This document shows, one piece after another, positions 5,619-61,687 of a stretch of 64,000 bases of DNA; within the stretch, counting starts at the first letter, position 1, and the number at the start of each line of letters is the position of its first letter. A program made the position numbers and the translations under genes. Source of the DNA: a virus (lineage: Duplodnaviria; Heunggongvirae; Uroviricota; Caudoviricetes); the IMG/VR virus record IMGVR_UViG_3300033121_001335, positions 1-64,000 of that record; one strand, given 5' to 3'. The notes beneath the pieces are model-generated. The model was not told the origin of the DNA. It was given only the letters and a program-made list of their open reading frames with translations, and did not search any database.

Positions 5619-7178
5619 TTACCAGAACGGTATTTCTTCAATCAACACTGTACGAGACATATCTTCGATGAATACATCACACCTGTCATCCATAAATATG
5701 GTGTAAGCATCCATTTTGTTGGCGGCAGAGTGGCCCTGAGATGCCATAGCACCGAGGTGACTTCTACGACCATCAATATACCCCCATGTCATGTTAGGGC
5801 GGCCCTGTCTCCTCACCTCTCTGATGTTATTAACCAGCTGTCCATCGGAAGTTGGGCTTACATCAAATACGATGAAGATTGGAGTGGATTTTTTGTTTTG
5901 ACCAAACTCCAAATTAGTTTGAGGCAGGTCAAGCTCTGTCAGGTGAATCAGGCTTACAACACCAGTTTCACGGGTAACGAAGCTATCAAAAGCGTAGTCA
6001 AGACGTAAGTTTTGACCTTTTCCTGAAATGAATTTATCGTTATCGCCCACAGTGAAATTCAATCCTGAAGCCAAAGCATCAATTTTAACGGCTTGTTGGA
6101 AAGCATCAAAACCTGCTTCATTTGTATATAGTTTAACCTTGCGGTCTCCCATATTCACCCTACGATAGAACAGGTCTCCGAACACTGTACGCAATAGATT
6201 CACAGAGAATTCACCACGATTGTAAGGAACATAATTACCTGATTTTCTCATACGGTGTACGATACCAGCAGAGATTTTCTTCAGCTCTTGCTTAGAGCCA
6301 TTGGTACGACCAAAGCCCGGTTTAGCAAAGAACATACGATTCACTTTCAATTCCAACATCTCTTTACGCATGAGAAACTCAATAAATGGCTCCCATTTAA
6401 TGTCTGAACGAGATTGGATTTGACCATTACGCACATTAGCGTAATATATAATATCCATTGGGTTACCCCATATATCTTTCTTGCCGTTGGCGATACGCTT
6501 GTCATCAGCCCAACCTGTAATTGTGTGTTCTTTAGAATATCCAGAACCAAGAGTTTCGAACATTTCGAGTCTCTCAGCCAGTCTATCCAGACCCAATAAG
6601 TCTTGGTCAAATTCACCAATAGAGGCGTTAATCACTTCAACCTCTACACCCGGAACAAACCGAGAGCGGTCAACGCTATCCACTGTAGGATTAGCAGAAA
6701 CCAATGTGGCCCTATTCAACCAGCCTGAGTTATATGGAGTTGGGTCAGATGTTAAGAGGATTTGCTGACCATGAATCCTAGAACCCATACTAACGATGGC
6801 ATTCTTAGAGATTTTAGTATCAAACACCACCTCAAATTCTTTACCATCAATACCAATATTAGTTTGGTCAAGAGTGGATTGAGGAACATCTATAATCACC
6901 GGGAACATGTATGGTTTCTCAATCTCCCAACGCCATGTATCACTCATCCCATCCAAATAATAAGGAGTGGATTTGTCTAACATTTGCAGGAAGTCGTTTT
7001 TATACAATGATGTCTGGGTGTATAAAGATATGATTTTCTTATCATAATCCGAAGGAGTGTCCCTGTGGAAACTTTCTAAGTGATTACTATCAGTAAGTTT
7101 ACCGATAGCACGTTTATCCATTTGGGAAATTCTACCTGCGTATAAACCAGTAAATCCCGGTAAAAACTGTTGAGCCAT
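5619..7178 (-). CDS. major capsid protein candidate
   Basis: 519 aa. Call is by position only: immediately downstream of the acidic scaffold-like gene in the order terminase-portal-scaffold-capsid. Followed by a 167-nt hairpin-rich intergenic region. Confidence 0.5.
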   Translation of the reverse strand: MAQQFLPGFTGLYAGRISQMDKRAIGKLTDSNHLESFHRDTPSDYDKKIISLYTQTSLYKNDFLQMLDKSTPYYLDGMSDTWRWEIEKPYMFPVIIDVPQSTLDQTNIGIDGKEFEVVFDTKISKNAIVSMGSRIHGQQILLTSDPTPYNSGWLNRATLVSANPTVDSVDRSRFVPGVEVEVINASIGEFDQDLLGLDRLAERLEMFETLGSGYSKEHTITGWADDKRIANGKKDIWGNPMDIIYYANVRNGQIQSRSDIKWEPFIEFLMRKEMLELKVNRMFFAKPGFGRTNGSKQELKKISAGIVHRMRKSGNYVPYNRGEFSVNLLRTVFGDLFYRRVNMGDRKVKLYTNEAGFDAFQQAVKIDALASGLNFTVGDNDKFISGKGQNLRLDYAFDSFVTRETGVVSLIHLTELDLPQTNLEFGQNKKSTPIFIVFDVSPTSDGQLVNNIREVRRQGRPNMTWGYIDGRRSHLGAMASQGHSAANKMDAYTIFMDDRCDVFIEDMSRTVLIEEIPFW

Positions 7179-26215: not shown

Positions 26216-27046
26216 ATGAATATTTCTGAACACACGGGTAATTTCATTCAGGAAATGAAACGTAGAAATTATAGCCAAAACACTATTGATAACTATTCTT
26301 CCTGCATTAAATATTTTTTCGCCCAATCAGCCAAAGACCATCCAAAAAATATTAACGAACAGGATATAAAAGATTTTTTAGGCAAGTTCACAGAGGTAAA
26401 TACTCAACGCAACTACCATAGTGCAATAAAGAAATTCTACGATGTTTGTTTAGGACAAAAGGAAAAGTTCAAATATATTCCTTACGCACAAAAGAATAGC
26501 AAACTGCCAATAGTTTTATCTGTTGAAGAAATACAAAAAATGTTCTCTGTTTGCGAAAACACTAAGCACAAAGTTATACTTGCCTTACTATACTCATGCG
26601 GATTGAGGGTATCGGAATTAATAAATTTGAAGTGGGCTGATATTGACCGAAGCAGAATGATTATAAATATCATTCAGGCAAAGGGCAAAAAAGATAGACA
26701 GGTTATGCTTACGCCTCAATTAATCCCGTTACTGGAAAAGTATTACAAAGAATATAAAAGTAAAACGTATGTGCTGAATGGATGGAAGAACGAATTGCAA
26801 TATTCAGATAGAAGTGTAGGCGAAGTGGTTAAGCAATTAGCAACTAAAGCAGGTATCAGCAAAAGAGTTTATACTCATTTACTTCGTCATTGCAGCTTTA
26901 CTCACATGGTAGAAAATGGAACGGACATAAATTTAATACAGAAATTAGCAGGACATAGTAATGTTAAAACGACATCTATCTATACCCATATTTCACATAA
27001 CTTGATTTCAAAGATACACTCCCCTTTAGCAAATATTAATCTTTAA
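26216..27046 (+). CDS. int: tyrosine recombinase / integrase (XerC/D-like)
   Basis: Catalytic pattern: GLRVSELINL (Arg), HLLRHCSFTHM (H-x-x-R), AGHSNVKTTSIYTH (His..Tyr). N-terminal SAM-like domain NTIDNYSSCIKYF. Confidence 0.9.
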   Translation: MNISEHTGNFIQEMKRRNYSQNTIDNYSSCIKYFFAQSAKDHPKNINEQDIKDFLGKFTEVNTQRNYHSAIKKFYDVCLGQKEKFKYIPYAQKNSKLPIVLSVEEIQKMFSVCENTKHKVILALLYSCGLRVSELINLKWADIDRSRMIINIIQAKGKKDRQVMLTPQLIPLLEKYYKEYKSKTYVLNGWKNELQYSDRSVGEVVKQLATKAGISKRVYTHLLRHCSFTHMVENGTDINLIQKLAGHSNVKTTSIYTHISHNLISKIHSPLANINL

Positions 27047-27723: not shown

Positions 27724-27903
27724 ATGACAATATTAACATTTCCCGTAGAAATGCAAGAAGATGTGTATAAAGTAACAGGGCAGCCAGCTCCGGATGAAGT
27801 TATTGATGTCACAGTAAAATTTAAAGAAACACTTTCCGATGAAGTGTTAGGATTATTAAAAGCTTTAGGTGTTCAAATCAGATTTATGACACCTGTAAAA
27901 TAA
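27724..27903 (+). CDS. hypothetical 59-aa protein
   Basis: Manual translation MTILTFPVEMQEDVYKVTGQPAPDEVIDVTVKFKETLSDEVLGLLKALGVQIRFMTPVK*. Confidence 0.4.
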   Translation: MTILTFPVEMQEDVYKVTGQPAPDEVIDVTVKFKETLSDEVLGLLKALGVQIRFMTPVK

Positions 27904-27910
27904 ATGAATG

Positions 27911-28166
27911 GTTGTTTGACACTTATTTGACTATATGTAAGACACGGGTTCGACTCCCGTCTGCTCCACCGGATTAATATTGACCATTTATAGGCCGGGT
28001 AATTCCGGTGGGGCAGCTTGGCTTTGATTGCATATCAGTGGATAGGAATAGACTATTCAGTGTAATAAACGGCAAGAGAATTGCTATTGGTAGAACTGCA
28101 ATGAGAATTGCGGCCTAACAACGTATTGCCCCCCTGTATTTATACAGCGAAAAGGGGGCTTTTTTA
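27911..28166 (+). ncRNA. circularly permuted tmRNA-like element (acceptor piece, 39-nt linker, coding piece, terminator); 27941-27970 is alternatively an attP core
   Basis: T-arm ACGGG-TTCGACT-CCCGT (27944-60). 3' acceptor CTGCTCC-A-CC (27961-70). 5' strand GGGGCAG (28010-16) is its exact complement with a G3:U pair. CUUGGCUUUGA D-loop analogue. P2-like UUGCAUAU (28028-35)/AUAUGUAA (27933-40). Tag-like frame 28071-28118 GKRIAIGRTAMRIAA*. Terminator 28128-66. Confidence 0.45.
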
Positions 28167-28185
28167 ATTATTTAAACTAAATTTT

Positions 28186-28449
28186 ATGAGTGATAATAAA
28201 TACATTGTAGAATGTTCTGATGAAGAAGAATGGGAAGCTGTTAAGGCTAAGGGAAATGTTGATTTGGGGAGCTATGAGGTGTATCAATATAGCTATCCAG
28301 AAGAACCTATAGCTATTGATGTTAATAATGGAGAATGAAGTAGGCTGAGTTATTACACTAACAAAAGGGGAGGAGAATATAGCGACTATAAGTTTATAAC
28401 AGCTCAAGAATATTTAAACCCTGTTTCTGAGCCTCTTCTATTTAATTAA
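28186..28449 (+). pseudogene. tail-family gene (..SEPLLFN) interrupted by in-frame TGA at 28336-28338
   Basis: Manual translation MSDNKYIVECSDEEEWEAVKAKGNVDLGSYEVYQYSYPEEPIAIDVNNGE*SRLSYYTNKRGGEYSDYKFITAQEYLNPVSEPLLFN*. Both halves are in one frame. Confidence 0.5.
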
Positions 28450-40239: not shown

Positions 40240-40247
40240 TAAATTTG
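40240..40247 (+). promoter_or_regulatory. -7 promoter box TAAATTTG, 5 nt upstream of the polymerase ATG
   Basis: Matches TAnnTTTG; spacing implies a leaderless or near-leaderless mRNA. Confidence 0.45.
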
Positions 40248-40252
40248 TGCCT

Positions 40253-42181
40253 ATGTTAGAAAATAATGTATATATATTTGATATTGAAGGTGATGGTTTG
40301 CTTTCTACTATTACGAAAATTCATTGCGTTTGTGCATATAACATAAAAACCAGAGAAGCTGTACAATTGACTAATTATCAAGAAATTGAACAATTTTTTT
40401 CTGACGAAAAAGCCACTTTTATAGGACATAATATTATACGTTTTGACATTCCGGCATTAAAAAAGATAATAAAGGTAGAAATAAGGGGTGATGTAATTGA
40501 TACACTAGCAATATCGTGGGTGTTAGAAGAAAACAGAAAAAATCATGGATTGGGGAGCTACGGAGAGGAGTTTAATATAAAAAAACCAGAAATAAAAGAT
40601 TGGAACAGCCTTACAGTAGAGGAATACATTCATAGGTGCTCCGAAGATGTAAAAATAAACACCACTTTATGGAACAGGCAAATAAAATATTTAAAACAAG
40701 TTTATTATCAAGATGATAAGAATTTATATAGGTGGTTTAAATATCTGAGATTTAAACTAGAGTGTGTGTATGAACAAGAAACTGAGGGGCTGAGATTAGA
40801 TGTTAATAAAGCTAAAAAGCACTTTAATGAGCTCTCTATTCTTAAAGAGGAAAAAATCAAAGAATTAGAAGCTGCTATGCCTAGAGTAGCCATTAAAAAA
40901 AAGAGGGTGTATAAAGATGCTGTAAAAGATAGTAATGGTAATGTTTTTGAAAAGGGTGACCTGTTTTATAATTCTCAACCTATTAGCAGGAAAAAAGAAG
41001 AAATAATAGAAGAAAAAATCATAGGTTGGAAAGAGCCTAATGCTAATAGTCATGTTCAGATAAAGAATTGGTTATACAATTTAGGTTGGATACCACAAAA
41101 TATACAGCATAAAAGAAATAAAAAAACTGGTGAGATAAAACTTATTCCTCAAATAAAAAGCCAATTTGAAATAGGAGAAATATGTGATAGTGTTAAATTA
41201 CTATTTAAAAAAGAACCAAAATTAGAGGCTTTAGGAGGATTGTCGGTGCTTACCCATCGTATTAGTATATTTGAAGGATTCATATCCGATGAGGAAAATG
41301 GACGCATATATCCCTCTATGAATGGTTTAACTAACACCCTGCGTCTTAAACATAGGGTAATTGTCAATCTACCTAGGGCTGGGAGGGCGTATGGGGAGGA
41401 CATTAGGGGGTGTTTAATAGCTGATGAAGGATGCATTTTATGTGGAAGTGATTTAAGCGGTATAGAGGATAGCACTAAAAGACATTTTATATATGATTAT
41501 GACCCTGAATATGTAAAAAGTATGGACACTCCGGGGTATGACCCCCATTTAGAGCTCGCTGTATTGGCAAAATTTATGACCAAAGAGGATGCTGATTGGT
41601 ATAAGGAAGAATCCAAAAAACGTAAAGATGAAGCCTATAAAGCCTCTACAGAAGACAATCAGAGGTTTACAGCTTTAACAGCTAAAAGGTATGTGGCTAA
41701 AACTACTAACTTTGCAGCAACATATAAAGTAGGAGCTAAGGCCTTAAGTGTATATCCCGGTATTAATTTAGGAATGAAGGAAGCAAAGAGGGTAATAGAT
41801 ACATATTGGAAAAGAAATAAGGCTATTTTGGACGTAGAAAATAGTTTAAATGTCAAAGAGGTATATGGGCAAAAATGGCTTTTTAATCCTGTTAGTAGAT
41901 TTTGGTATACATTAAGGGCTGATAAAGATAGATTTAGTACATTAAATCAGAGTACGGCTGTATTTGTATTTGATAAGTGGCTTACAGAAATTAAAAAAGC
42001 TGGTGTTAAAATACCATTCCAATACCATGATGAAATAGGATTTAATGTTAAAAAAGAGAAAAAAAGAGAAAATACAGCGATTATTAAACAAGCCATACAA
42101 ACTGTTAACGACAAATTAAAACTAAATATAACAATAGGATGCAGTGTTGATTATGGTAAAAAATATAGTGATATACATTAA
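40253..42181 (+). CDS. family-A DNA polymerase with 3'-5' exonuclease domain
   Basis: Exo I IFDIEGDGL, Exo II GHNIIRFDIPAL, motif B RYVAKTTNFAATYKVG, motif C YHDEIGF. Start moved from GTG at 40247 to ATG at 40253. Confidence 0.9.
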   Translation: MLENNVYIFDIEGDGLLSTITKIHCVCAYNIKTREAVQLTNYQEIEQFFSDEKATFIGHNIIRFDIPALKKIIKVEIRGDVIDTLAISWVLEENRKNHGLGSYGEEFNIKKPEIKDWNSLTVEEYIHRCSEDVKINTTLWNRQIKYLKQVYYQDDKNLYRWFKYLRFKLECVYEQETEGLRLDVNKAKKHFNELSILKEEKIKELEAAMPRVAIKKKRVYKDAVKDSNGNVFEKGDLFYNSQPISRKKEEIIEEKIIGWKEPNANSHVQIKNWLYNLGWIPQNIQHKRNKKTGEIKLIPQIKSQFEIGEICDSVKLLFKKEPKLEALGGLSVLTHRISIFEGFISDEENGRIYPSMNGLTNTLRLKHRVIVNLPRAGRAYGEDIRGCLIADEGCILCGSDLSGIEDSTKRHFIYDYDPEYVKSMDTPGYDPHLELAVLAKFMTKEDADWYKEESKKRKDEAYKASTEDNQRFTALTAKRYVAKTTNFAATYKVGAKALSVYPGINLGMKEAKRVIDTYWKRNKAILDVENSLNVKEVYGQKWLFNPVSRFWYTLRADKDRFSTLNQSTAVFVFDKWLTEIKKAGVKIPFQYHDEIGFNVKKEKKRENTAIIKQAIQTVNDKLKLNITIGCSVDYGKKYSDIH

Positions 42182-46609: not shown

Positions 46610-46617
46610 TATTGTAT

Positions 46618-47688
46618 ATGACAAAAGATGAGATTCAGGCGAAGGCTGTAGAACTATTTAAAAAACAGCCTTCGCTTTTAATTGAATGGCCTACGGGATG
46701 TGGGAAGGGGTTGGCTGTAATGAAATGTATTTTAGCCTCTGGAAATGGGCCAAAATGGCTCATTGTGGTGCCGGAAATCGTCCAAATAAGTAATTGGTGG
46801 CGAGATTGCGAAAAATGGGGCCTTAGAAACAAAATAAGCCCCTTTATTGAGGATGTAATATGTTATGCTAGCTTAAAAAATTGGGCCGGAAAACGGCTTA
46901 GAATCGCTTTAAATGAGTGTCACCACTTGTCAGAAGAAAGGGCTAATATTTTAGCTTCAATAGAATACACCCAAATTATAATGGACAGCGCCACAATACC
47001 CACAGACGTAAAGGAAAGACTTCCCGCTCATATCAGCTATAAAATAAGCATGAAAGAGGCGGTAGAATGGGGAATTTTGCCAGCACCGGGGGTAAATATT
47101 CATTATATAGAGCTTGACGATTGGCAAAAACTATGGCCTAAAAAGCTCAAATCAGGCAAAATATTAATGGTGACGGCAAAATCCTATTATAGTGATTTAA
47201 CAGCTAATTTTAAATATTGGCAAAATAGACACAGAATGGAGGGGGAGCCTTGGCAACAAAAAAGGATGTTTATGTCTGCTATATCCAGAAAGAGGTGGAT
47301 GTCTGAATATAAGACAAAAAAGGCCAAAGAGGTGATAGAGCTTATAAAGAATAAGAGATATGTCGTATTTTGTGGGTCTGTTAAACAAGCTAAAGAATTG
47401 GGGGGTAAACAGGCTATTCACAGTGGGAATAGGCATAATCAAGAACTTATTGATGAATTTAACATGTTGATAACCAATAATTTATATGCTTGTTCTATGA
47501 TGAAGGAGGGTATGAATTTAGAGGGCATAGAAGCCGGACTTATTACACAACTGGATGCTGGAGATTTGGGTAATATTCAAAGGTTGGGTAGATTGTTAAG
47601 AAGTGATTTTCCTGAACTTCATTTAATATGTTTAAAGGATACAAAAGATGAAGAATATTTAGAAAACTTTTTAAAAGCAATAAAATGA
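46618..47688 (+). CDS. superfamily-2 DNA/RNA helicase
   Basis: Motif I WPTGCGKG, motif II LNECHHL (DExH-like), motif VI QRLGRLLR. Start moved from TTG at 46612 to ATG at 46618. Confidence 0.75.
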   Translation: MTKDEIQAKAVELFKKQPSLLIEWPTGCGKGLAVMKCILASGNGPKWLIVVPEIVQISNWWRDCEKWGLRNKISPFIEDVICYASLKNWAGKRLRIALNECHHLSEERANILASIEYTQIIMDSATIPTDVKERLPAHISYKISMKEAVEWGILPAPGVNIHYIELDDWQKLWPKKLKSGKILMVTAKSYYSDLTANFKYWQNRHRMEGEPWQQKRMFMSAISRKRWMSEYKTKKAKEVIELIKNKRYVVFCGSVKQAKELGGKQAIHSGNRHNQELIDEFNMLITNNLYACSMMKEGMNLEGIEAGLITQLDAGDLGNIQRLGRLLRSDFPELHLICLKDTKDEEYLENFLKAIK

Positions 47689-47951: not shown

Positions 47952-48614
47952 ATGGCAAAATTAGTGGGAATTGTTGGGGATACGGGAAGCGGAAAAAGTA
48001 GCTCTATCACTCATTTAAATCCTAAAGAAACCTACATTATTAATGTAGCAGGAAAAGAGCTTCCTTTTAGAGGGAGTGAAAAACTCTATAACGAAGCTAA
48101 TAAAAATTATGCTGTTATAGAAACACCAAAAGAGGTGTTAGAAAAAATAGAGAAAATAGCTGAAAAAGCACCTCATATTAAGACAATTGTTATAGAGGAT
48201 GCTAATTATTTGTTTGGGTTCACTATGGTGGATAAGGCGACAGAAACTGGATATACAAAATTCAGTGTTATGGCTCAACAAATGAAGAATTTAGTTCAAG
48301 GGGTGAAGAAATTGAGGGATGATTTGTTAGTGGTGTATATGAGCCATTATGAGGAAGTGATGGATACAGGAGAAATTGTTACGTATAAAATGAAAACAGC
48401 TGGGCAGCTTGTGGATAAAGAATTAAAGCTCGATGGCCTATTTACAACCGTACTATATGCAATAGTGGAGGGTAAAAATAATGATGAACATATATTCCTT
48501 ACTAACAGATATAAAAAATATCCAGCCAAAACTCCAATGGGTATGTTTTCAGAGTTAAAAATAGAAAATAATTTACAAGCGGTGAGAGATATTGTAATGG
48601 AATATTATACATAA
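47952..48614 (+). CDS. P-loop ATPase (Sak4/RecA-like core candidate)
   Basis: Walker A VGDTGSGKSSS and Walker B-like TIVIEDANY. Confidence 0.55.
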   Translation: MAKLVGIVGDTGSGKSSSITHLNPKETYIINVAGKELPFRGSEKLYNEANKNYAVIETPKEVLEKIEKIAEKAPHIKTIVIEDANYLFGFTMVDKATETGYTKFSVMAQQMKNLVQGVKKLRDDLLVVYMSHYEEVMDTGEIVTYKMKTAGQLVDKELKLDGLFTTVLYAIVEGKNNDEHIFLTNRYKKYPAKTPMGMFSELKIENNLQAVRDIVMEYYT

Positions 48615-48900: not shown

Positions 48901-49848
48901 ATGGCAGCGAAAGGAGAAAAAAGAACAGAAAAAACAGGTGGAGAAGGAATTCAGCTAGTGTGTGGACTAGGATTAGTGGAAGAAATAGTGTGCATTAATC
49001 CCACAAATGCTGAAAAAGCAAAAATGTATGGGTATGAACTGGATGAAGACAGGGAGGAAACAGAATATGTAGGAGAGAATGAAGAGGGAAAAGCTAAACT
49101 AGCTTTAGACATTTATTATCGTTTACAGGGTGTAGAAGCTCCTAGAAAACAGAGGTTTTTCCTAGAAAATGAGGCGATTACATTTGAGGATGAGAATGAT
49201 GATAATAAGGTTAAATTTAAATTTGTCAATCAGGTGGGACAAATTGCTACGGCTGAAAGTGAAGATGATTTAGGTGATTGGTTTACGGAGTTTCAGGAAT
49301 GGGATAAGGATGAAAAGAAGTTCGTAAAAATTGGAGAAAAGAAAACATTTAGAAAGTGTTTAAGGGGTGAGGACACTCTCATGAGATTTTTAAGAGAGGC
49401 TCTCTCTATTAATTATGAGCTTCCATCGGCTGATTTAAGTTATAATTATAAAAAACTTTTCACTGGAAACACTAAAGAACTTCTAACAGATTTGCAAGGA
49501 GATTTATTCAGGAAATTTGTTGTTATGACTCAAGTGACCACTAAAGAAGGTGATGATGGTGTAAATCATTATGAGAAATTGTGGCTCCCTAACAATAATT
49601 TTGGTGTTCCGACACTACCAGAAGAGGCTATGAAGCATATTAACAACGGTTGTAAATTTCCTACAGGATGGATGGGTAAAAAGTGGAAAAAATACAAGGA
49701 AACATACGAAAAATATGCTCCTAGTGGATTTGCTCCACTAGAGCCCGTACGTCCATATGATGATTCAGAGGATGTTTCAGCAGGAACAACGGCTAAGAAA
49801 GAGCCTAAGAAGATTGTAGCTGGAAGTGATTCGGATGACGATTATTAA
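48901..49848 (+). CDS. ssDNA-binding protein candidate (T7 gp2.5-like logic)
   Basis: Sits in the replication module. The acidic C-terminal tail ending in an aromatic residue (..GSDSDDDY) is typical of phage SSB tails. No fold evidence. Confidence 0.45.
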   Translation: MAAKGEKRTEKTGGEGIQLVCGLGLVEEIVCINPTNAEKAKMYGYELDEDREETEYVGENEEGKAKLALDIYYRLQGVEAPRKQRFFLENEAITFEDENDDNKVKFKFVNQVGQIATAESEDDLGDWFTEFQEWDKDEKKFVKIGEKKTFRKCLRGEDTLMRFLREALSINYELPSADLSYNYKKLFTGNTKELLTDLQGDLFRKFVVMTQVTTKEGDDGVNHYEKLWLPNNNFGVPTLPEEAMKHINNGCKFPTGWMGKKWKKYKETYEKYAPSGFAPLEPVRPYDDSEDVSAGTTAKKEPKKIVAGSDSDDDY

Positions 49849-49962: not shown

Positions 49963-49995
49963 AAGCCTTGAGAAGAAATTCTCAGGGCTTTTTTA
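49963..49995 (+). terminator. intrinsic terminator (GAAA loop)
   Basis: GCCTTGAGAA-GAAA-TTCTCAGGGC plus T6. Confidence 0.7.
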
Positions 49996-49996
49996 T

Positions 49997-50004
49997 TATA
50001 TTTG
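49997..50004 (+). promoter_or_regulatory. -7 promoter box TATATTTG, 5 nt upstream of the ATG
   Basis: TAnnTTTG; same 5-nt spacing as at the polymerase gene. Confidence 0.45.
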
Positions 50005-50009
50005 TAATT

Positions 50010-51005
50010 ATGGGAGCAACAGGAGTTATAAAAAAGAAGAGAATATCAGTAGAAGAAATATTAGCTATTACACAAGGGGGTTGGGACGTATTTATTAAAG
50101 AAATAGGAAGATTTCCTGTATGTAAATCATTTAAACACCCATTAAAAAGAGATAAATCTCCTTCTGGTGCTATATTTAATCGAGAAGGAATATGGTTTTT
50201 AAAGGATTTTGCAGGAAAATTCCCCACCATGACGGCTATTCAATTTGTACAGAGGAAATATTCTTTAGATTTTAAAGAAGCTATGGATAAGATATGTCAG
50301 GATATGGGTATTAACCCTTCCACAAAAGAATATAAACCTATACAAATATTTGAAAAAGCCCCTATTTATGAACAAAGTGATATTCATATTGGATTTTCTG
50401 ATATGAAGTGGAAAAAAGAACATCATTTATTCTGGAAAAACACAGAAGTGACGGAAGCACATTGTAGAAAATATGATGCTTATGCTGTAAAAGAGTGTTC
50501 TATAAATAGAAAAAAAGTGAGAATGGGTTTAAATGAGGTGGTGTGGGCTTATTATGTAGAGGAAATAGATAGGGTTAAACTTTATTTTCCAGAAAGGGAA
50601 AAAAAATTAAGACATAGGGGAAATGTTCCTAACAATCATATATGGAATCTTCATAATATAGGAGAATGTGATAAACTTATCGCCCAGAAATCATTTAAAG
50701 ATTTATTAGTAACCACCATACTCACTCCTTGTGTTGTAGCTCTTCAAAATGAAGACGCTAAATTATTTGTTAATGCAGAAACTGGACCTAAGCTTGAAAA
50801 ATGCGGAAAAGAGATATTTTTAGCCTTTGGGAGTGATGAGCATGGGGTGGAAAATAGTAAAATCCTTACAGATGAATATGGATATAAATGGGTAAATCCC
50901 CCTAATAAATATTTAAAAGAGGATATTAATGATGCCTATTCTTTAGCTCATAAATATGGACTAAAAGCTTGGGAAGAATGTTTAAAAAAGAAAAAAATAA
51001 TATAA
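50010..51005 (+). CDS. DNA primase-like protein
   Basis: N-terminal CKSFKHPLKRDKSPSGAIF..WFLKDFAGK..AIQFV resembles the primase finger region (..F..D..PS......W.DF..G...D.I.F). TOPRIM-like FGSDEHG. The track start at 49968 is rejected because it lies inside the terminator. Confidence 0.5.
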   Translation: MGATGVIKKKRISVEEILAITQGGWDVFIKEIGRFPVCKSFKHPLKRDKSPSGAIFNREGIWFLKDFAGKFPTMTAIQFVQRKYSLDFKEAMDKICQDMGINPSTKEYKPIQIFEKAPIYEQSDIHIGFSDMKWKKEHHLFWKNTEVTEAHCRKYDAYAVKECSINRKKVRMGLNEVVWAYYVEEIDRVKLYFPEREKKLRHRGNVPNNHIWNLHNIGECDKLIAQKSFKDLLVTTILTPCVVALQNEDAKLFVNAETGPKLEKCGKEIFLAFGSDEHGVENSKILTDEYGYKWVNPPNKYLKEDINDAYSLAHKYGLKAWEECLKKKKII

Positions 51006-51009
51006 AACC

Positions 51010-51390
51010 ATGAGATTACAAAAAGAGGAACTAGCGGCAGTGGCTGGACACATATTAGAACAAATAAAAGAAAAGAACAAAGTGGAAGTTTCAAAAAAAG
51101 ATAAGGCTTTAATAGCGGCTTTTTTCAAGTTAAAGACTAAAACCTATGAACAAATTGATGTCTTAAATAAATCCATAACAAATGCTCGTGGGGAGTTAAA
51201 TAAAACCTTGGGGACTAACCTTCCTATTTATGGAGAGTCTCAAGAAAGTTATGAAAAACAACTATCTAAATCAAAGGAAAAAAGTATTCCAACATTAGAT
51301 GAAATAAAAAAACAAGTGATTCTTAAGAGTTTATTTTCAGGCGAAAAGGAGTTGAAAGAGTTTATTAAAGAATTAGTGGCTAAATATTAA
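51010..51390 (+). CDS. hypothetical protein
   Basis: ORF track. Confidence 0.6.
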   Translation: MRLQKEELAAVAGHILEQIKEKNKVEVSKKDKALIAAFFKLKTKTYEQIDVLNKSITNARGELNKTLGTNLPIYGESQESYEKQLSKSKEKSIPTLDEIKKQVILKSLFSGEKELKEFIKELVAKY

Positions 51391-51392
51391 TA

Positions 51393-52130
51393 ATGAGTAA
51401 GCTTAATTGGGAGAAATTTAAAGAAAAATTCGATGAGAGTTGGCATTTAAAAATGAAGCCCTTTATTGAATCTAAAGAATGTTATGACATATACCAAGTG
51501 TTAAAAAGCCGGGGGAATGAAATATTACCATATTCTAAAGCTTTATGGAAGGCATTTAGATGGTGTAATTTGGATAATTTAAAATGTATTGTTGTAGGAC
51601 AGAGTCCATATCATACATTAGATAATGGAATACCCTTAGCAGATGGCATAGCCTTTAGTTGTAGCAACACTAAAAAAGAAAGTCCCAGTTTAAAAATTCT
51701 ATTTGACGCAATAGCTTATGATTTAGATAGGAGAACTATAGAAAGAAACCCAAACCTTGATTATTTATGTTTTCAAGACATTTTGATGTTAAATCTAAGC
51801 TTGACAATTAAAAGGGGCGACAAGAATAGTTTTGGAGAACATGAATTGTTGTGGAGACCGTTTATAGAATATCTGTTTAAAGAGGTGTTGAATACAATGA
51901 CGGGAATTCCTATTATATTATTTGGCAGTCCGGCTAAAGAACAAATAGTGCCTTTATTACATGATAGTCAGCCTTATAAGTGTGTTAAACATCCAGCTTG
52001 GTATGCTAGAGATAAGAGTCCTATGTTTACTGATTGTTTTAGTTGGGCTTCTAAAATGAGTTTTGACAATAATGGAGAGGAAATATATTGGGACTATAAT
52101 GACTATTTAGTAAAAGGTTTACCGTTTTAA
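51393..52130 (+). CDS. family-1 uracil-DNA glycosylase homologue with Ser in place of the catalytic Asp
   Basis: AFRWCNLDNLKCIVVGQSPYH..GIAFS..PSL..L.QDILMLNLSLT..LFGSPA..KHPA aligns by eye with Ung (AFRF..VKVVILGQDPYH..GLAFSV..PPSL..QGVLLLNTVLTV..LWGSHA..HPSPLS). Confidence 0.6.
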   Translation: MSKLNWEKFKEKFDESWHLKMKPFIESKECYDIYQVLKSRGNEILPYSKALWKAFRWCNLDNLKCIVVGQSPYHTLDNGIPLADGIAFSCSNTKKESPSLKILFDAIAYDLDRRTIERNPNLDYLCFQDILMLNLSLTIKRGDKNSFGEHELLWRPFIEYLFKEVLNTMTGIPIILFGSPAKEQIVPLLHDSQPYKCVKHPAWYARDKSPMFTDCFSWASKMSFDNNGEEIYWDYNDYLVKGLPF

Positions 52131-52141
52131 TTAAAATAATT

Positions 52142-52477
52142 ATGAAAAAGAGATTATATTTCCAAGTGTGTAGCGCTTGTGGTTCAAAAGAAGTGGCAAG
52201 ATGTAAATGGGTAAATGTAAATGATGACACTATATATGACCAAGATTCAGGAACAACCCTAGAATGGTGCATGGAATGTGAAGATGAAACAAGTATAATT
52301 GAAGAAAATGAGTTTAAAGAATCATTTTTAGAAGAAATTCCCGGAAATGAATCTAAACCCTCTTGTGAAAATTGCGGAAGTCCAAACATAGAATGGCATC
52401 ATTATGATAAGAAAAGTGGGGAGCATTTTATAAAATGCTACAAATGTAACCACATTTTTGATGCTTCTTTAAGATAG
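52142..52477 (+). CDS. double zinc-ribbon protein
   Basis: CSACGS..CMECED and CENCGS..CYKCNH. Confidence 0.6.
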   Translation: MKKRLYFQVCSACGSKEVARCKWVNVNDDTIYDQDSGTTLEWCMECEDETSIIEENEFKESFLEEIPGNESKPSCENCGSPNIEWHHYDKKSGEHFIKCYKCNHIFDASLR

Positions 52478-53387: not shown

Positions 53388-54566
53388 ATGGCAGAAACAT
53401 ATAAAATAGGTGATTATGTAGTGCTTTCTTCTACAAGACCTAGAGGTTGGACCACTTTTATGGACGAGTATTTAGGAAAAATTGTAGAAATAACTTATGT
53501 AGGGGGGAGAACATTTAATTGGCTAGGAAATGTTCGGGGATATACATTTGAATTAACTGATATTGTAAGAAAGGCTACTGATGAGGAAATAAAAGAGGTA
53601 ATAAGGAAGGAAGAAATAAAAAAACAGGAATTTAAAGAAAAATATAAACATTATATATTCGAAACAGATAAATTGGAGAAATTAGCTATAAGTGTATTTG
53701 GAAATGATAGGGTGTATATTGAAGATAAAAATGACCATATATATTTATATATACATTTTCCTGAAATAAACATCACCAATAGTTTAGAGCAAAAACATTT
53801 AATAAAAGACCTATATACAAGATTTAGTTTTACTGTAAGAAAAAACAATTTTGAAACGTCTGGTTATAAACTAAATTTAAGTTTTGCTGGTAGAAGGAGT
53901 TCTCTTTCTTTAAAAGAATATGAAAGTAGCTATAGACATAGTCATTTACAAAGTGGTCAAAATACATTCACTGAGTTTTGTTTAGGAAGCAGCGATTATT
54001 CTTTATTATTACAGAGTTTACAAATAGAGCCTATAGAGGATAATTGGATGATGGTGTTATTAGGATTGGAAAATTATTTAACTTGGGAAAGTTTAGAGGG
54101 TGGCCCATATATGACAATAGATAGTTTAAAATATAACAATAACAGGAGTGGTAGTGAGCTTGCAGCAGAAGCTAAAAGACTGGCAGGAGGCATACCAAAT
54201 GTTTGTTGGGAATTTATAAGTTCTAAATTTGGGCTAATTCCTAATCACCCATTATTATATAATTATTTTGATAAGAATTCTATAATAAGAAATCTCCATG
54301 CTTATTCCAAAGAGGAAGCTAAAGCAGCTGCTAAAAAAGCCACCAGTGAGCTCAATGGATATAGTTTAAATTGGAAGGGGAAGGATATAAATATGAGGGT
54401 GTATGCAGAGGATGAGACGGATGGAGATAACACCCTGAGCAGGGAAGTGGTGATAAAATATTGTGAAATATTATCAGATGAGAGTGTCAAATTTTTAAAA
54501 AATAGTCAATATGAAAGAGGAAAAGAAAGAAACGAAAAAAGAGTCTTTGGAAAAATTAGAGCTTAG
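53388..54566 (+). CDS. hypothetical protein; E2-like conjugating-enzyme candidate
   Basis: HSHLQSGQNTFTEFC(198)LGS loosely resembles the UBC active-site HPN....G.IC(L). N-terminal SH3-like YKIGDYVVL. Confidence 0.3.
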   Translation: MAETYKIGDYVVLSSTRPRGWTTFMDEYLGKIVEITYVGGRTFNWLGNVRGYTFELTDIVRKATDEEIKEVIRKEEIKKQEFKEKYKHYIFETDKLEKLAISVFGNDRVYIEDKNDHIYLYIHFPEINITNSLEQKHLIKDLYTRFSFTVRKNNFETSGYKLNLSFAGRRSSLSLKEYESSYRHSHLQSGQNTFTEFCLGSSDYSLLLQSLQIEPIEDNWMMVLLGLENYLTWESLEGGPYMTIDSLKYNNNRSGSELAAEAKRLAGGIPNVCWEFISSKFGLIPNHPLLYNYFDKNSIIRNLHAYSKEEAKAAAKKATSELNGYSLNWKGKDINMRVYAEDETDGDNTLSREVVIKYCEILSDESVKFLKNSQYERGKERNEKRVFGKIRA

Positions 54567-55791
54567 TAACAAGCCTACATTGGTTATAACTAAGGAATTA
54601 TGTGATAAAATAGCTTTTTTGCATAGCAAAGAAGATGTAGAATGGAGTGGGGAACTTATAGTGAGGGAAGAGGGTACAATAAATGATTTAGACGAATGGA
54701 AGCTTATAGCTGAAGATGTATTCCTCGTGGATATAGGTTCTTCTTCTTATACAGCCTATGAAGTGGGTAAGGGGAGTTTTCAAACAGACGATATAATGGA
54801 AATGTACGAAAAACATCCGGGATTATTAGAGGGCACACATAAACAACATCATATTCATTCACATAATAGTATGGGCTGTTTCTTTAGTGGAACAGACTGG
54901 GACCAAATGAATGACAGATGTTTAGTGAGTAACTATCTTCTTATGTTAATTGTAAATTTTGATGGAAAATGGTGCGCAAAGGTAGGATTTAAAGCCAAAA
55001 AAGAAGGAAATTCAGGAACTACACTCAATTTTGCTAATAATGCAGATGGTTTAAAACCACTAGTGCTAAAGGGAGATAAATCTGATGACGTATTGGTGGT
55101 TATGGATTGTAAAATTGTTAAAGAAAATAGTGTGACAGTGCCAGATGATTTTGTAAAAAGGTATGACACTGTTAAAAAGGTAAAAGAAGAGGCCAAAAAG
55201 AAAGAAGAAAAAGCAAGGCAATTTAGTGGTGGTGCTTACAACCGAGTGGGGCCTAAAAAAGATTGGAAACAACCTGTTCTAGGAGGCAGAGAAGATTGGA
55301 TGAGAGATGCTTGGGATGGTGTTGAAGAAGAGGATAGTGTGGATGATTACGAAAAAATAAATGGTGTTTGGAAGAAAACTAAAAATAAGCAGAAAAGAAT
55401 CAGTGAAATGACAGAAAAAGAATGGAATGAGAGTCAAAGCACTGGTGTAGGAAGTTTTACCATAGCTCATGCCAAAGCTCTTTTAAATTCCATTTTAGAT
55501 GGGACATATATGGCTTATGATTACTCAGACCCAATGAAGAAAATAGAAGAACAAGAGTCTAAACTAGTGAGGGGCACTGATGATTATGAAAAATATGTTG
55601 ATGAGTTTGCAGAGCTCCTTCAAGAACATTTTGATGTAATATTTTTATATAAAAATCAAAATGACTATATAGAACTTATGAATCAAGTGTTAGAATATTT
55701 AATTCCATACACATTTAGGAGTGATTTAGTGTCTATGATGATAGAAGCAGTAAAAATTGAAATTGAACTATATAAAGAACCTGTAATATGA
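54511..55791 (+). CDS. JAB/MPN (JAMM) metallopeptidase domain protein with long C-terminal extension
   Basis: Exact JAMM motif H116-S-H118-x7-S126-x2-D129 (HSHNSMGCFFSGTD, nt 54856-54897) plus the upstream Glu (VEWSGEL). Confidence 0.8.
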   Translation: MKEEKKETKKESLEKLELSNKPTLVITKELCDKIAFLHSKEDVEWSGELIVREEGTINDLDEWKLIAEDVFLVDIGSSSYTAYEVGKGSFQTDDIMEMYEKHPGLLEGTHKQHHIHSHNSMGCFFSGTDWDQMNDRCLVSNYLLMLIVNFDGKWCAKVGFKAKKEGNSGTTLNFANNADGLKPLVLKGDKSDDVLVVMDCKIVKENSVTVPDDFVKRYDTVKKVKEEAKKKEEKARQFSGGAYNRVGPKKDWKQPVLGGREDWMRDAWDGVEEEDSVDDYEKINGVWKKTKNKQKRISEMTEKEWNESQSTGVGSFTIAHAKALLNSILDGTYMAYDYSDPMKKIEEQESKLVRGTDDYEKYVDEFAELLQEHFDVIFLYKNQNDYIELMNQVLEYLIPYTFRSDLVSMMIEAVKIEIELYKEPVI

Positions 55792-56516
55792 GAGAACAAA
55801 CAACAAGAACAACAAGATTTAGTGGGGCTGATTGGTCAGACCAACTAAAAACCATCTATCTTATAGGACTGGGTGGAATAGGCAGCTATGTTGCTTATAA
55901 TTTAGCCAGAATAGGACATCAATTGATTTTAATTGATGGTGATATTGTTGATGAAACAAATGTAAATGGAGGACAGCTCTATCGTGTAGCAGATGTTGGT
56001 AAATATAAGGTGGACGTTATGCAAGAAATATGCAGACAATTTGGTGGAATAGGTGGAATTAGTGCTTACAGTACAAATTATGAAGAAGAGAATTTTGGTG
56101 CTAATGATATTACAATATGTGGACTGGATAATATGGCGGCCAGAAAACAAGTGTTTGAGGCCTGGGTTGATGGATTTTATGGGGACAAAGATGCTCTTTA
56201 TATTGATGGCAGACTTTTAATGGAAAGTATGGAAATATTTGCTATAAAAGGTGATGATGAAGAAGCTATTAGTAAATATAGGGAGGAACATTTATTTGAT
56301 GATAGTGAAGTGGCTGATTTAGACTGTACATCCAAACAAAGCTCATTTGCAGGGATGATTATAGCTGGTATGATGACAGCAATATTGTGTAATCATTTAA
56401 CCAACCGAAAAATGGGAATGGATTTTAGAACTGTACCATTTTATCAAAGGCTTCACCTGCCCATATTTAAACATGATGTTATAGAATCAACTATAGAAAA
56501 GGAGGCTTTGGTGTAA
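55788..56516 (+). CDS. ThiF/MoeB/E1-like adenylyltransferase
   Basis: Rossmann GLGGIGSYVAYNLARIG..LILIDGDIVDETNVNGGQLY and ICGLDNMAARK; ATGA overlap with the JAB gene. Confidence 0.8.
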   Translation: MREQTTRTTRFSGADWSDQLKTIYLIGLGGIGSYVAYNLARIGHQLILIDGDIVDETNVNGGQLYRVADVGKYKVDVMQEICRQFGGIGGISAYSTNYEEENFGANDITICGLDNMAARKQVFEAWVDGFYGDKDALYIDGRLLMESMEIFAIKGDDEEAISKYREEHLFDDSEVADLDCTSKQSSFAGMIIAGMMTAILCNHLTNRKMGMDFRTVPFYQRLHLPIFKHDVIESTIEKEALV

Positions 56517-60201: not shown

Positions 60202-60885
60202 ATGGCAACAGTAACAATGGATATAGCCGAATTAGATAAATTGCGGCAGGAGTTAAAAGAACAAAAAGAAAAACAAGAAGCTCTTTCAAAAGAAATGAAC
60301 GATGTAAAGAGTGATAAAAGGGTGATAGTAAAAACAAAACCAGCTACCAAAGCAGATTTTACTTATAGTTTTGACATGCAAAGATATACTAAGTATCATC
60401 AACAACTTACCTCTAGATTGGGTTATAGTAGTCATACGGTGTTTTCAGAAAATGATGCTATAAGAAAGTGTCTTACTATATATCCTCTTCATAATATAGA
60501 GGGGCAATTTAAAGAATTTATAAATTTTGAGGATGCTAAAGAGGAACTTAAAGCTAAGCTTGAGGAAAAATATAAAGATGAATTAGCTAATTTAAGAGCC
60601 TCTGAAAAATACTCTGATGATAGACTTAGAGATAAACAAAAAGAATTTGAGGAAGCTAAGAGAGTGTTAATACAGCAACATGAAGAAAGAGAGGCGCTTA
60701 AGCAAAAAGACATTGATGCTCTCCAAAAGAAATACGATGAGTTAGAATCTGGTAAGAGGGAACTTTCTAAAATACAAAAATTACAAGAAACTATACAAAA
60801 ATTACAAGAAACTATACAAAAACTGGAAAAAGAGCTAATTAAAGAAAAATCCAAGTCTTGGTGGCAAAAATTATTAGGAAAATGA
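60202..60885 (+). CDS. coiled-coil protein with internal 21-bp tandem repeat
   Basis: KIQKLQETIQKLQETIQKLEKE encoded by 60772-60824. Confidence 0.65.
   Translation: MATVTMDIAELDKLRQELKEQKEKQEALSKEMNDVKSDKRVIVKTKPATKADFTYSFDMQRYTKYHQQLTSRLGYSSHTVFSENDAIRKCLTIYPLHNIEGQFKEFINFEDAKEELKAKLEEKYKDELANLRASEKYSDDRLRDKQKEFEEAKRVLIQQHEEREALKQKDIDALQKKYDELESGKRELSKIQKLQETIQKLQETIQKLEKELIKEKSKSWWQKLLGK
60772..60824 (+). repeat. 21-bp tandem repeat x2.5 (atacaaaaattacaagaaact)
   Basis: Copies at 60772-60792 and 60793-60813, partial copy at 60814-60824. Confidence 0.9.
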
Positions 60886-61367
60886 AAATATTGTATATAG
60901 ATATGGATGGGGTTGTAGCAGATTTTGATAAGTTTGTCCAGCCCCTAATACCAGATATAGAATTAGGTGATGGTGACCCATCTACATACGTAGAGAGAAG
61001 TAAAAGAGTGGATGAGTTAATGATAGCTAATCCTACAATGTTTGAAAAGCTACCACTTATACCGAGGGCTTCTTGGGCTATCTATAAGCTTAAAGATAGC
61101 GGATTATACGATATATATTTTCTTTCTACTCCTGTTTGTCATGTTCCAGAAAGCTATAGTGGAAAAAGAATATGGTTAAAAGAGAATTTTGGAGAATGGG
61201 TGGATAAAAGGCTTATCCTTACACATAGAAAAGATTTAGCTATAGGAGACTATTTAATAGATGATAGATTTAAAAATGGTGCTGCTGAATTTAAAGGAGA
61301 ACACATACATTTTAAAGGAGAAAAATTTCCTAATTGGGAATCAGTTATAAAATATTTATTACCATGA
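60882..61367 (+). CDS. 5'(3')-deoxyribonucleotidase (HAD superfamily)
   Basis: Motif I ILYIDMDGVVADF. Start moved to ATG at 60882 (ATGA overlap). Confidence 0.75.
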   Translation: MKILYIDMDGVVADFDKFVQPLIPDIELGDGDPSTYVERSKRVDELMIANPTMFEKLPLIPRASWAIYKLKDSGLYDIYFLSTPVCHVPESYSGKRIWLKENFGEWVDKRLILTHRKDLAIGDYLIDDRFKNGAAEFKGEHIHFKGEKFPNWESVIKYLLP

Positions 61368-61687
61368 CACCAGAAAAACAATTAGAAATATACAAGGAAA
61401 TAGATGCTGAAATCTTAGAAATTACCAAATCTAAAAGACATGATTACGCTGATGCAGATGTATTAAGTAATTTTAAGAGTGTTAGTATGGCAGCTAAGAG
61501 TTTAGGAATAGATATAGGAAAATCAGAACAATATGCTATGTTTATGGTGTTGTTAAAAATTGCTAGACTAACAAATCTTTTGAATTCTGGTAAAACACCA
61601 TCAAACGAAGCTATAGGAGATAGTTTTAAAGATGCTATAAATTACATGAAATTATCTTATTGTTGTTACATTGATGAAACTATATAG
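61364..61687 (+). CDS. hypothetical protein (DUF1599-like impression)
   Basis: KRHDYADADVLSNF..LLKIARLTNL. Start moved to ATG at 61364. Confidence 0.5.
   Translation: MTPEKQLEIYKEIDAEILEITKSKRHDYADADVLSNFKSVSMAAKSLGIDIGKSEQYAMFMVLLKIARLTNLLNSGKTPSNEAIGDSFKDAINYMKLSYCCYIDETI

Follow-up and report, generated by a model that had tools for sequence, protein, structure and literature searches.

A selectively maintained branch of phage family-1-type uracil-DNA glycosylases without the catalytic aspartate

The aspartate of motif A (GQDPYH) is treated as a defining and invariant feature of family-1 uracil-DNA glycosylases (UNGs), and its mutation is the standard way to disable the enzyme. The gene considered here encodes an UNG-like protein with serine at this position. 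It lies at 51393-52130 in a stretch of 64,000 nucleotides from a tailed phage (Caudoviricetes; positions 1 to 64,000 of IMG/VR record IMGVR_UViG_3300033121_001335), referred to below as the window. The superfamily of uracil-DNA glycosylases (UDGs) provides several points of reference. In family 1, the aspartate activates or positions the water and the histidine of motif B stabilizes the uracilate; in families 2 and 3, an asparagine occupies the aspartate position (PMC5387724). Families 4, 5 and 6 have neither an acid nor a polar residue there in motif 1, and family 4 (Gly/Ala) is robust and uracil-specific, the water being positioned by the motif-2 His and a neutral Asn (PMC5387724). Viral members have roles outside repair, since vaccinia D4 contributes to processivity independently of catalysis and a catalytically inactive UNG of Epstein-Barr virus (EBV) restores viral replication (PMC1936997, PMC5934625). 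Papers listing UDG among the replication and nucleotide genes of crAss-like phages are silent on the catalytic residues (PMC7886860, bioRxiv 2025.03.26.645540, PMC10983915).

The window protein belongs to a large, unreported and selectively maintained branch of viral family-1-type UNGs in which the motif-A carboxylate is missing (‘acid-less’ below, as opposed to ‘acid-bearing’). No published description of an acid-less phage UNG was found, and the literal variant motifs are likewise absent from the literature searched. The reading preferred here, with a rough probability of 45%, is that such proteins would be strongly attenuated uracil glycosylases acting at the phage replication fork, with uracil recognition kept and the general base gone.

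Fold, motifs and register of the catalytic position

The landmarks of the gene are as follows.

51393-52130 (+): gene for the UNG-fold protein, 245 amino acids, ATG start (open reading frame, NCBIfam and PDB matches, AlphaFold2 and Foldseek)
51597-51614 (+): motif A, GQSPYH, residues 69-74, with Tyr73 and His74 kept
51603-51605 (+): Ser71, codon AGT, in place of the water-activating Asp (HMMER and MAFFT)
51615-51647 (+): loop that follows motif A and is 4 residues longer than in E. coli Ung, with the conserved Ala83-Asp84-Gly85 at its end (alignments)
51642-51644 (+): codon of Asp84, in the inserted loop
51654-51656 (+): Phe88, the uracil-stacking residue (E. coli F77), F/M/L across the family
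51792-51794 (+): Asn134 in LMLN, the uracil-specific hydrogen-bonding residue (E. coli N123), from the alignment
51990-52010 (+): motif B, HPAWYAR, residues 200-206, with His200 kept
52119-52127 (+): C-terminal Leu-Pro-Phe-COOH following an acidic/aromatic stretch, from the translation

Homology to family-1 UNG along the whole length, which the original prediction had read by eye, is borne out and goes far beyond what chance would give. The NCBIfam ung models match the protein end to end (E 1e-29). A family profile compared with UNGs of the PDB matches over the full length with E 3e-37. The AlphaFold2 model, built with 32 homologs, has a mean pLDDT of 95.8 and a pTM of 0.92, and the 50 best PDB matches returned by Foldseek are all UNG structures (TM 0.68-0.83, E ~1e-13), including those of Kaposi's sarcoma-associated herpesvirus (KSHV), human, herpes simplex virus 1 (HSV-1), E. 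coli and Deinococcus; for human, viral and bacterial UNGs the TM values lie at 0.75-0.83. The UDG alpha/beta fold with its central parallel sheet is thus present over the full length, and the loop inserted after motif A forms a small beta-hairpin in the model (DSSP). The segments GIAFS, PSL, LMLN..LT, LFGSPA and KHPA are all found as the same prediction had described.

The protein is nevertheless an outlier by the standards of curated models. Its NCBIfam scores (TIGR00628, 90.8 bits against a cut-off of 185.75; NF003592, 103.9 against 162) fall below the thresholds. Among the checks proposed beforehand, structural modelling gave a confident UNG fold and Pfam PF03167 gave no match at E<=1. The phage family phrog_12143 (‘UDG-F1-like’, the UDG family of crAss-type phages) does match, with E 4e-17. 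All PDB profile matches at E<=0.01 are named ‘uracil-DNA glycosylase’, among them the mimivirus and poxvirus D4/E4 proteins; no recognizable entry of UDG families 2-5 occurs among them, and those that can be identified are of the family-1 type. Fold, motif-B His and the uracil-specificity residues Tyr73, Phe88 and Asn134 are those of family 1, but the catalytic Asp, the Leu intercalation loop and scores above the curated thresholds are missing. By fold and profile, the window protein belongs with family-1 UNG.

Alignment with E. coli Ung by MAFFT pairs D64 with S71, Y66 with Y73, F77 with F88, N123 with N134, H187 with H200 and L191 with Y204, and in phmmer comparisons with the solved UNGs 3wdf, 9pyv and 3zoq, ‘gqspyh’ matches ‘gqdpyh’ column for column. 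Including the end-to-end NCBIfam match, three independent alignments agree that serine stands at the catalytic Asp of GQDPYH, as had been proposed, and no residue other than Ser71 falls at this column. Gly, Gln, Pro, Tyr and His of motif A are all present and only the Asp differs. The motif itself was correctly recognized earlier, but it had been placed at about 51601-51618, 4 nt away from its actual position at 51597-51614. The described reduction of HPSPLS to HPAWYA with its His retained (residues 200-205, nt 51990-52007) is confirmed. Tyr204 occupies the Leu191 column and is followed by Arg206, so that the Ser-Pro-Leu-Ser wedge is replaced, with Ala for both Ser. His200-Pro201 is invariant in the clade alignment. 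Ser71 is not a sequencing error, because independent assemblies contain the identical protein (P0001) and another at 83% identity (P0002) that also carries GQSPYH.

The acid-less clade, its constraint and its co-varying residues

Loss of the acid extends far beyond the window. A word-indexed search gave 30 close homologs, all with Ser, Cys or Ala at the Asp column, Asp being found in the most distant match alone; the motifs include GQSPYH, GMSPYH, GLSPYH, GMCPYH, GLCPYH, GMAPYH and others. A profile search of 1.84 billion representative sequences gave 1,611 matches at E<=1e-30. For a census, the 150 best profile matches were joined to the first 32 sequences as representatives at 50% identity (n=182). 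The Asp column of this family set is occupied by D (72), S (45), C (26), E (19), A (9), G (4), N (3) and a few other residues, and the class comparisons given below set its 91 acid-less against its 91 acid-bearing sequences. At least 562 relatives of the window protein occur in IMG/VR. Locus statistics refer to the 80 best of these, on contigs up to 124 kb, where the column is Cys in 69, Ala in nine and Ser in two, GMCPYH alone accounting for 58.

Every cultured or deposited phage examined keeps an acid. IAS virus has GQDPYC, and in Cellulophaga phage phi14:2 the Asp column holds Glu; the motif of crAss001 gp74, Kolpuevirus, DAC15, Dulem virus 41, bajarodcaudo virus, cr108_1 and Flavobacterium phage FpV4 is GQDPYP. 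Two unverified contigs labelled ‘Listeria phage’ and ‘Bacteriophage sp.’ show the canonical GQDPYH and HPSPL. In a neighbour-joining tree, pure acid-less clades of 30, 20 (with the window protein), 10 and 9 tips are seen, and Ser, Cys and Ala interchange inside them. The Fitch minimum for this tree is 19 state changes; neither a single origin of the acid-less state nor any other number of origins is claimed, because the tree is too noisy at such divergence. Loss of the acid is a trait of a large phage clade known from metagenomes only. Since the acid-less state is clade-wide, selection for the loss of the carboxylate becomes the central fact to be explained.

The gene is under strong purifying selection. 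Comparison with its relative in locus L009, 83% identical, gives dN 0.097, dS 1.55 and dN/dS 0.06. The median tree distance to E. coli Ung is 0.80 for acid-less proteins versus 0.79 for acid-bearing phage homologs, and the mean column entropy is 2.15 versus 2.26 bits. Since distance and entropy are equal in both classes, constraint shows no sign of relaxation in the acid-less class. At least 16 columns are invariant in a clade alignment spanning 38-84% identity, and the reading frame is unbroken in hundreds of contigs. The missing catalytic residue and the scores under the curated family cut-offs might bring to mind a phage UDG in decay, or what is left of one that has ceased to function. This explanation is almost certainly wrong, and is effectively refuted by the low dN/dS, the intact frames, the invariant columns and the lack of any rate acceleration; relaxed constraint and a pseudogene were rejected on the same grounds. 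As hundreds of related phages share the loss, with Ser, Cys or Ala in the column, the gene does not look broken; the function seems rather to have been changed under selection.

The uracil pocket is equally conserved in both classes. Tyr73 is present in 87/91 acid-less and 89/91 acid-bearing sequences, Asn134 in 86/91 and 90/91 (177 of the 182 family sequences have N) and His150 in 87/91 of each class; the Phe88 column holds Phe, Met or Leu in both. This equality argues for continued uracil recognition. His200 is found in 77/91 acid-less versus 85/91 acid-bearing sequences, and its retention fits continued chemistry. The Leu loop HPSPLS is replaced family-wide in phages by HP[AS]-x-x-[AS]-[RY], and of the four serines that pinch the phosphates, two are missing.

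Two residues, one in motif A and one in the loop after it, were considered as substitutes for the lost acid. His74 of motif A (E. coli H67, human H148) is present in 62/91 acid-less sequences but in only 6/91 acid-bearing ones, where it is mostly Pro. The human counterpart, His148, is next to the catalytic water, and ‘possible assistance’ to Asp145 has been ascribed to it (PMC8730318). The column of Asp84 holds His in canonical UNG; the Asp occurs in 85/91 acid-less sequences (93%). A fully competent uracil-DNA glycosylase, with the base or electrostatic role moved to His74 or Asp84, would account for the covariation of the first and the near-constancy of the second, and the water-coordinating residue has relocated elsewhere in the UDG superfamily (PMC5387724). 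Full competence is nonetheless improbable, given the degraded Leu wedge and serine pinch. Relocation of the acid to Asp84 was reduced to a minor alternative, because 69/91 acid-bearing relatives (76%) have this residue too, which is not the pattern of a swap; the distribution points to Asp84 as a family trait, and not as a substitute for the lost Asp.

The Ser or Cys in place of the Asp occupies the usual position of the attacking water. In another conceivable chemistry, it would itself attack C1' of a flipped deoxyuridine and give either a covalent suicide or marking complex as with UdgX, or base exchange by a transglycosylase. The sole positive hint is the heavy predominance of Cys, a rare residue, in one large subclade, that of the GMCPYH loci. 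Ala or Gly occupies the Asp column in ~14% of acid-less sequences, which speaks against covalent attack as a general mechanism but leaves the Ser and Cys lineages eligible. Overall, covalent chemistry is very improbable.

The C-terminal end also differs between the classes. An [LIV]-Pro-Phe-COOH end after an acidic/aromatic stretch is found in 57/91 acid-less versus 31/91 acid-bearing representatives, and in the IMG/VR sets a PF-type tail occurs in 57/68 acid-less versus 0/74 acid-bearing proteins. The LPF tail of the window protein resembles the C-terminal tip of the bacterial single-stranded DNA-binding protein SSB (...DDDIPF). This SSB tip is the peptide on which many replication and repair proteins dock. 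A co-crystal of E. coli Ung with a C-terminal SSB fragment (3uf7) is among the structural matches. The LPF end of the window protein is probably a protein-docking tail.

The replication module, the nucleotide pool and the phage at large

The UDG-like gene lies within a co-directional replication module of the phage, whose relevant members, with the two nucleotide-related genes farther downstream, are listed here.

40247-42181 (+): family-A DNA polymerase (PolA), PF00476, E 4e-14; same order in relative L007
44312-45397 (+): DnaB-like helicase, PF03796, E 3e-9; in 58/80 acid-less loci
46612-47688: DEAD/Helicase_C protein of the replication module
47952-48614: AAA_24 ATPase of the replication module
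48901-49848 (+): 315-aa protein with an acidic tail (..AGSDSDDDY) and a terminal aromatic residue, no family match
49968-51005 (+): DNA primase, phrog_12622, E 4e-13
51010-51390 (+): 126-aa protein between the primase and the UDG-like gene, no family match
52142-52477 (+): 111-aa protein of the next gene downstream, carrying several CxxC pairs (by eye, like a zinc ribbon)
60858-61367 (+): NT5C deoxypyrimidine 5'-nucleotidase, PF06941, 38.3 bits against a cut-off of 24.8
61334-61687 (+): DUF1599 ‘nucleotide modification associated’ domain, sub-threshold (20.5 against 25 bits)

The consistent neighbours of the UDG-like gene are replication genes, the primase above all, with a homolog ~2 kb upstream in 75/80 acid-less IMG/VR loci. 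In Flavobacterium phage FpV4, a toprim gene stands directly upstream of the UDG gene. Across the 80 acid-less loci, DnaB, AAA_24, HNH, PD-(D/E)XK and RecA genes are found at fixed offsets. Homologs of the 315-aa protein occur ~3 kb upstream in 37-72 of these loci; this protein is possibly SSB-like, its tail being typical of phage SSB-type proteins. A 62%-identical relative has the same gene order as the window. The contig of the 83%-identical relative, which starts at AAA_24, shows this order too, but with an extra small open reading frame before the primase-sized gene and without the 126-aa gene. In the window, the stop of the 126-aa gene and the start of the UDG-like gene are 3 nt apart; a gene of similar size takes its position in L007 and L008, and L009 has a different upstream neighbour. 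The 111-aa downstream protein, which has no family match, is kept in L009 (4552-4887) and not in L007. Farther downstream come a JAB/MPN-like and ThiF pair, a PD-(D/E)XK nuclease and RecA.

The JAB/MPN-like and ThiF genes are part of a conserved trio at 53388-56516 (+), formed by an uncharacterized 392-aa protein, the JAB/MPN-like protein (HxHx..SxxD motif, by eye) and a ThiF/E1-like protein (PF00899, E 6e-19). The trio recurs at L001 1462-5133, L007 11287-14430 and L009 5807-8911, its first two genes overlapping by 44-62 nt in all four genomes, and crAss001 has such a trio in gp78, gp77 and gp76. In the Cys-type subclade, a ~770-aa GHKL-type ATPase and a ~500-aa protein follow the UDG-like gene within 1.4-3.7 kb (representatives L071 8219-10591 and L070 13414-15306), in 61 and 56 of the 80 acid-less IMG/VR loci, respectively. 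The larger protein gives weak HATPase_c matches (E 3.5e-5). Both are missing from acid-bearing loci and from the window, and they may constitute a phage type-II-topoisomerase-like pair.

A different specificity had been entertained, and the nucleotide-related genes had been taken as a hint of nucleotide-pool manipulation. A change of target from uracil to another or a modified base, by a glycosylase or a binder tied to genes of nucleotide-pool or DNA modification, would be in keeping with NT5C, which is real by its Pfam score and lies 9 kb from the UDG-like gene, and with the DUF1599 domain, the two being 9-10 kb downstream. Moreover, tblastn searches with crAss001 and E. coli dUTPases gave no dUTPase in the 64-kb window, and no second UDG was found in it. 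This retargeting is highly improbable all the same. The thymine-excluding Tyr73, which leaves no room for 5-substituents, and Asn134, the reader of the uracil/thymine face, are ~95% conserved, as in the Asp-bearing relatives, so that a modified-pyrimidine specificity is disfavoured. The suggested link to nucleotide-pool manipulation is weak: NT5C is genuine but distant, the DUF1599 match is sub-threshold, and in the 80 related acid-less loci neither gene has a homolog close to the UDG-like one. Neighbourhoods were also compared by clustering 4,568 flanking open reading frames of 80 acid-less and 80 acid-bearing loci, with Pfam searches on the 20 discriminating families. The two locus classes share a backbone, and what discriminates them are lineage-specific replication genes (GHKL ATPase, AAA_24, GIY-YIG, DUF6915 and a fragment of ribonucleotide reductase). 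No dUTPase, thymidylate synthase or other pool family tracks the acid-less state in this comparison, and a dUTPase occurs within 10 kb of the UDG-like gene in 1/80 acid-less loci; the nucleotide-pool link was rejected on this basis.

Around NT5C, a small cluster at 60202-61687 (+), upstream of recA, comprises a deoxynucleoside-monophosphate-kinase-like candidate, NT5C and the sub-threshold DUF1599; the L007 homolog of the kinase-like candidate has a weak PF21448 match.

The phage at large belongs to a lineage without close cultured relatives, though its replication genes resemble those of crAss-like phages. Megablast against the phage collection gave no near-identical DNA, and no relative or integrated copy was found in 185,579 representative genomes. 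The major head protein (5619-7178, minus strand; phrog_11589) has one match in 50,697 phage records, in Leptolyngbya phage Lbo-JY46 at 24.7% identity. A tyrosine recombinase/integrase at 26216-27046 (+), with PF00589 (E 2e-36) and SAM-like N-terminal domains, suggests that the phage is temperate or integrative. The integrase gene is followed, about 0.9 kb downstream, by a permuted tmRNA gene of the two-piece type at 27911-28118 (+), matched by Rfam RF04321 with 53.7 bits (E 1e-7) where the gathering score is 47; ARAGORN places a tmRNA* at 27879-28209 with the tag peptide GKRIAIGRTAMRIAA*. This gene could be phage-borne, or it could derive from attP and copy a host ssrA that serves as integration site.

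Proposed function and comparison with known systems

The original prediction had left two options, a binding-only decoy or sensor and a glycosylase with altered chemistry. Both still lead, the variant directed at a modified base having lost favour. In the attenuated glycosylase preferred here, uracil would be flipped out and recognized via Tyr73, Phe88, Asn134 and His200. No carboxylate would be at hand to activate the water or to stabilize the oxocarbenium ion, and cleavage would be driven by His200 stabilizing the leaving group, with the water only positioned by neutral groups, namely the hydroxyl of Ser71 (the thiol of Cys in relatives) and His74. The protein would act at the phage replication fork, tethered probably through its LPF tail. 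It is tempting to propose a rationale for such slowness: fast excision makes abasic sites or breaks in a single-stranded template, which slow or binding-dominated handling of uracil would avoid.

Several points weigh against this scheme. Asp replacement in true family-1 enzymes leads to a ‘dramatic decrease’ in activity, and nothing in the window protein appears to indicate compensation for the lost Asp. The association of His74 with acid loss is strong by Fisher's test (p = 6e-19), a value that ignores the kinship of the sequences. Because of the ~14% of Ala and Gly at the column, a hydrogen-bonding side chain is not strictly required there. With the Leu wedge and half of the pinching serines gone, a lower activity is to be expected. 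Finally, slow and zero hydrolysis are not separable by sequence alone.

The main alternative is a protein dead for hydrolysis, which would bind flipped uracil or scan DNA as a structural or sensing subunit of the replisome, for example in read-ahead detection of template uracil or as a processivity or tethering factor. Large clades have lost the carboxylate without ever regaining it, suggesting that cleavage is selected against; the replication-module position is conserved, the LPF tail is enriched in the acid-less class, and D4 and EBV UNG have catalysis-independent viral roles. However, D4 and EBV UNG keep their catalytic residues, so that a dead family-1 UNG would be without natural precedent, and the candidate reader has no known partner protein. 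His200 is about as conserved as in acid-bearing relatives, though it may be kept just for recognition of O2. That Asp is persistently avoided, and Ala and Gly tolerated, speaks for the reader, whereas the undiminished conservation of His200 speaks for residual chemistry. Such a reader is a serious but somewhat unlikely alternative to the attenuated glycosylase.

Whichever holds, acid-less UNGs are surprising for UNG enzymology, since a large natural viral clade dispenses with the Asp under strong purifying selection and with an intact uracil pocket, and they provide a natural handle on the non-catalytic roles of viral UNG. As slow enzymes, they would reveal how much an UNG scaffold can do by leaving-group stabilization alone, and in evolution they would link family 1 with the UDG families of Asn and Ala type. 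As non-cleaving readers, they would be natural separation-of-function alleles and natural equivalents of the ‘dead UNG’ sensors engineered for uracil mapping in DNA, and they would bear on the long-standing question of why viruses build UNG into replisomes. To our knowledge, a repair-independent role of UNG in the replisome is known for poxviruses and herpesviruses and is not established for phages. The annotation ‘uracil-DNA glycosylase’ given by genome pipelines may be wrong for hundreds of phage genomes.

Among known systems, family-1 UNGs (E. coli Ung, human UNG2, HSV-1 UL2 and KSHV UNG) are by far the best sequence relatives. They share with the window protein the fold, the Tyr/Phe/Asn pocket, the motif-B His and the Pro-Tyr-His of motif A. 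The differences are the Asp-to-Ser change, HPAWYAR in place of HPSPLS, the 4-residue insertion with its Asp and the LPF tail. The UDGs of crAss-like phages (crAss001 gp74, Kolpuevirus, DAC15 and IAS virus), with that of FpV4, are 33-36% identical to the window protein and share with it the altered motif B (HPAYYAR type) and the placement in a replication module. Unlike the window protein with its GQSPYH, they keep the Asp and have Pro for the motif-A His (GQDPYP); they also have a short loop, Thr or Asn at the place of Asp84 and mostly no LPF tail.

Poxvirus D4/E4 (GIDPYP, HPAARDR) also have altered motifs, a loop containing Arg having taken the place of the Leu loop, and the replisome uses D4, a viral protein with the UNG fold, independently of its catalysis, a likeness to the window protein that is hypothetical. 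D4 retains the Asp and is active and uracil-specific, whereas the window protein lacks the Asp and has no known A20-like partner. Kinship with D4, suggested by the DPYP/HPA..R likeness, was rejected: the family profile matches the D4/E4 chains weakly (E ~1e-5) and only over profile positions 126-230, the C-terminal half, so that the likeness of the motifs is superficial or convergent.

UDG families 2/3 (MUG/TDG and SMUG1, with Asn) and 4/5 (UDGa/UDGb, with Gly/Ala) have no motif-1 carboxylate, as in the window protein. Their catalysis depends on stabilization of the leaving group and on a water held in place by neutral groups (PMC5387724), the arrangement proposed here for the window protein. 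They differ in sequence, and the pocket of the window protein is of the family-1 type (Tyr, not Glu); by analogy, these acid-less families are its likely functional counterpart. UdgX of Mycobacterium smegmatis, also of the UDG superfamily, binds uracil sites stably in a tight or covalent complex rather than turning over (PMC4787834); it is family-4-like, with motifs and an insertion of its own.

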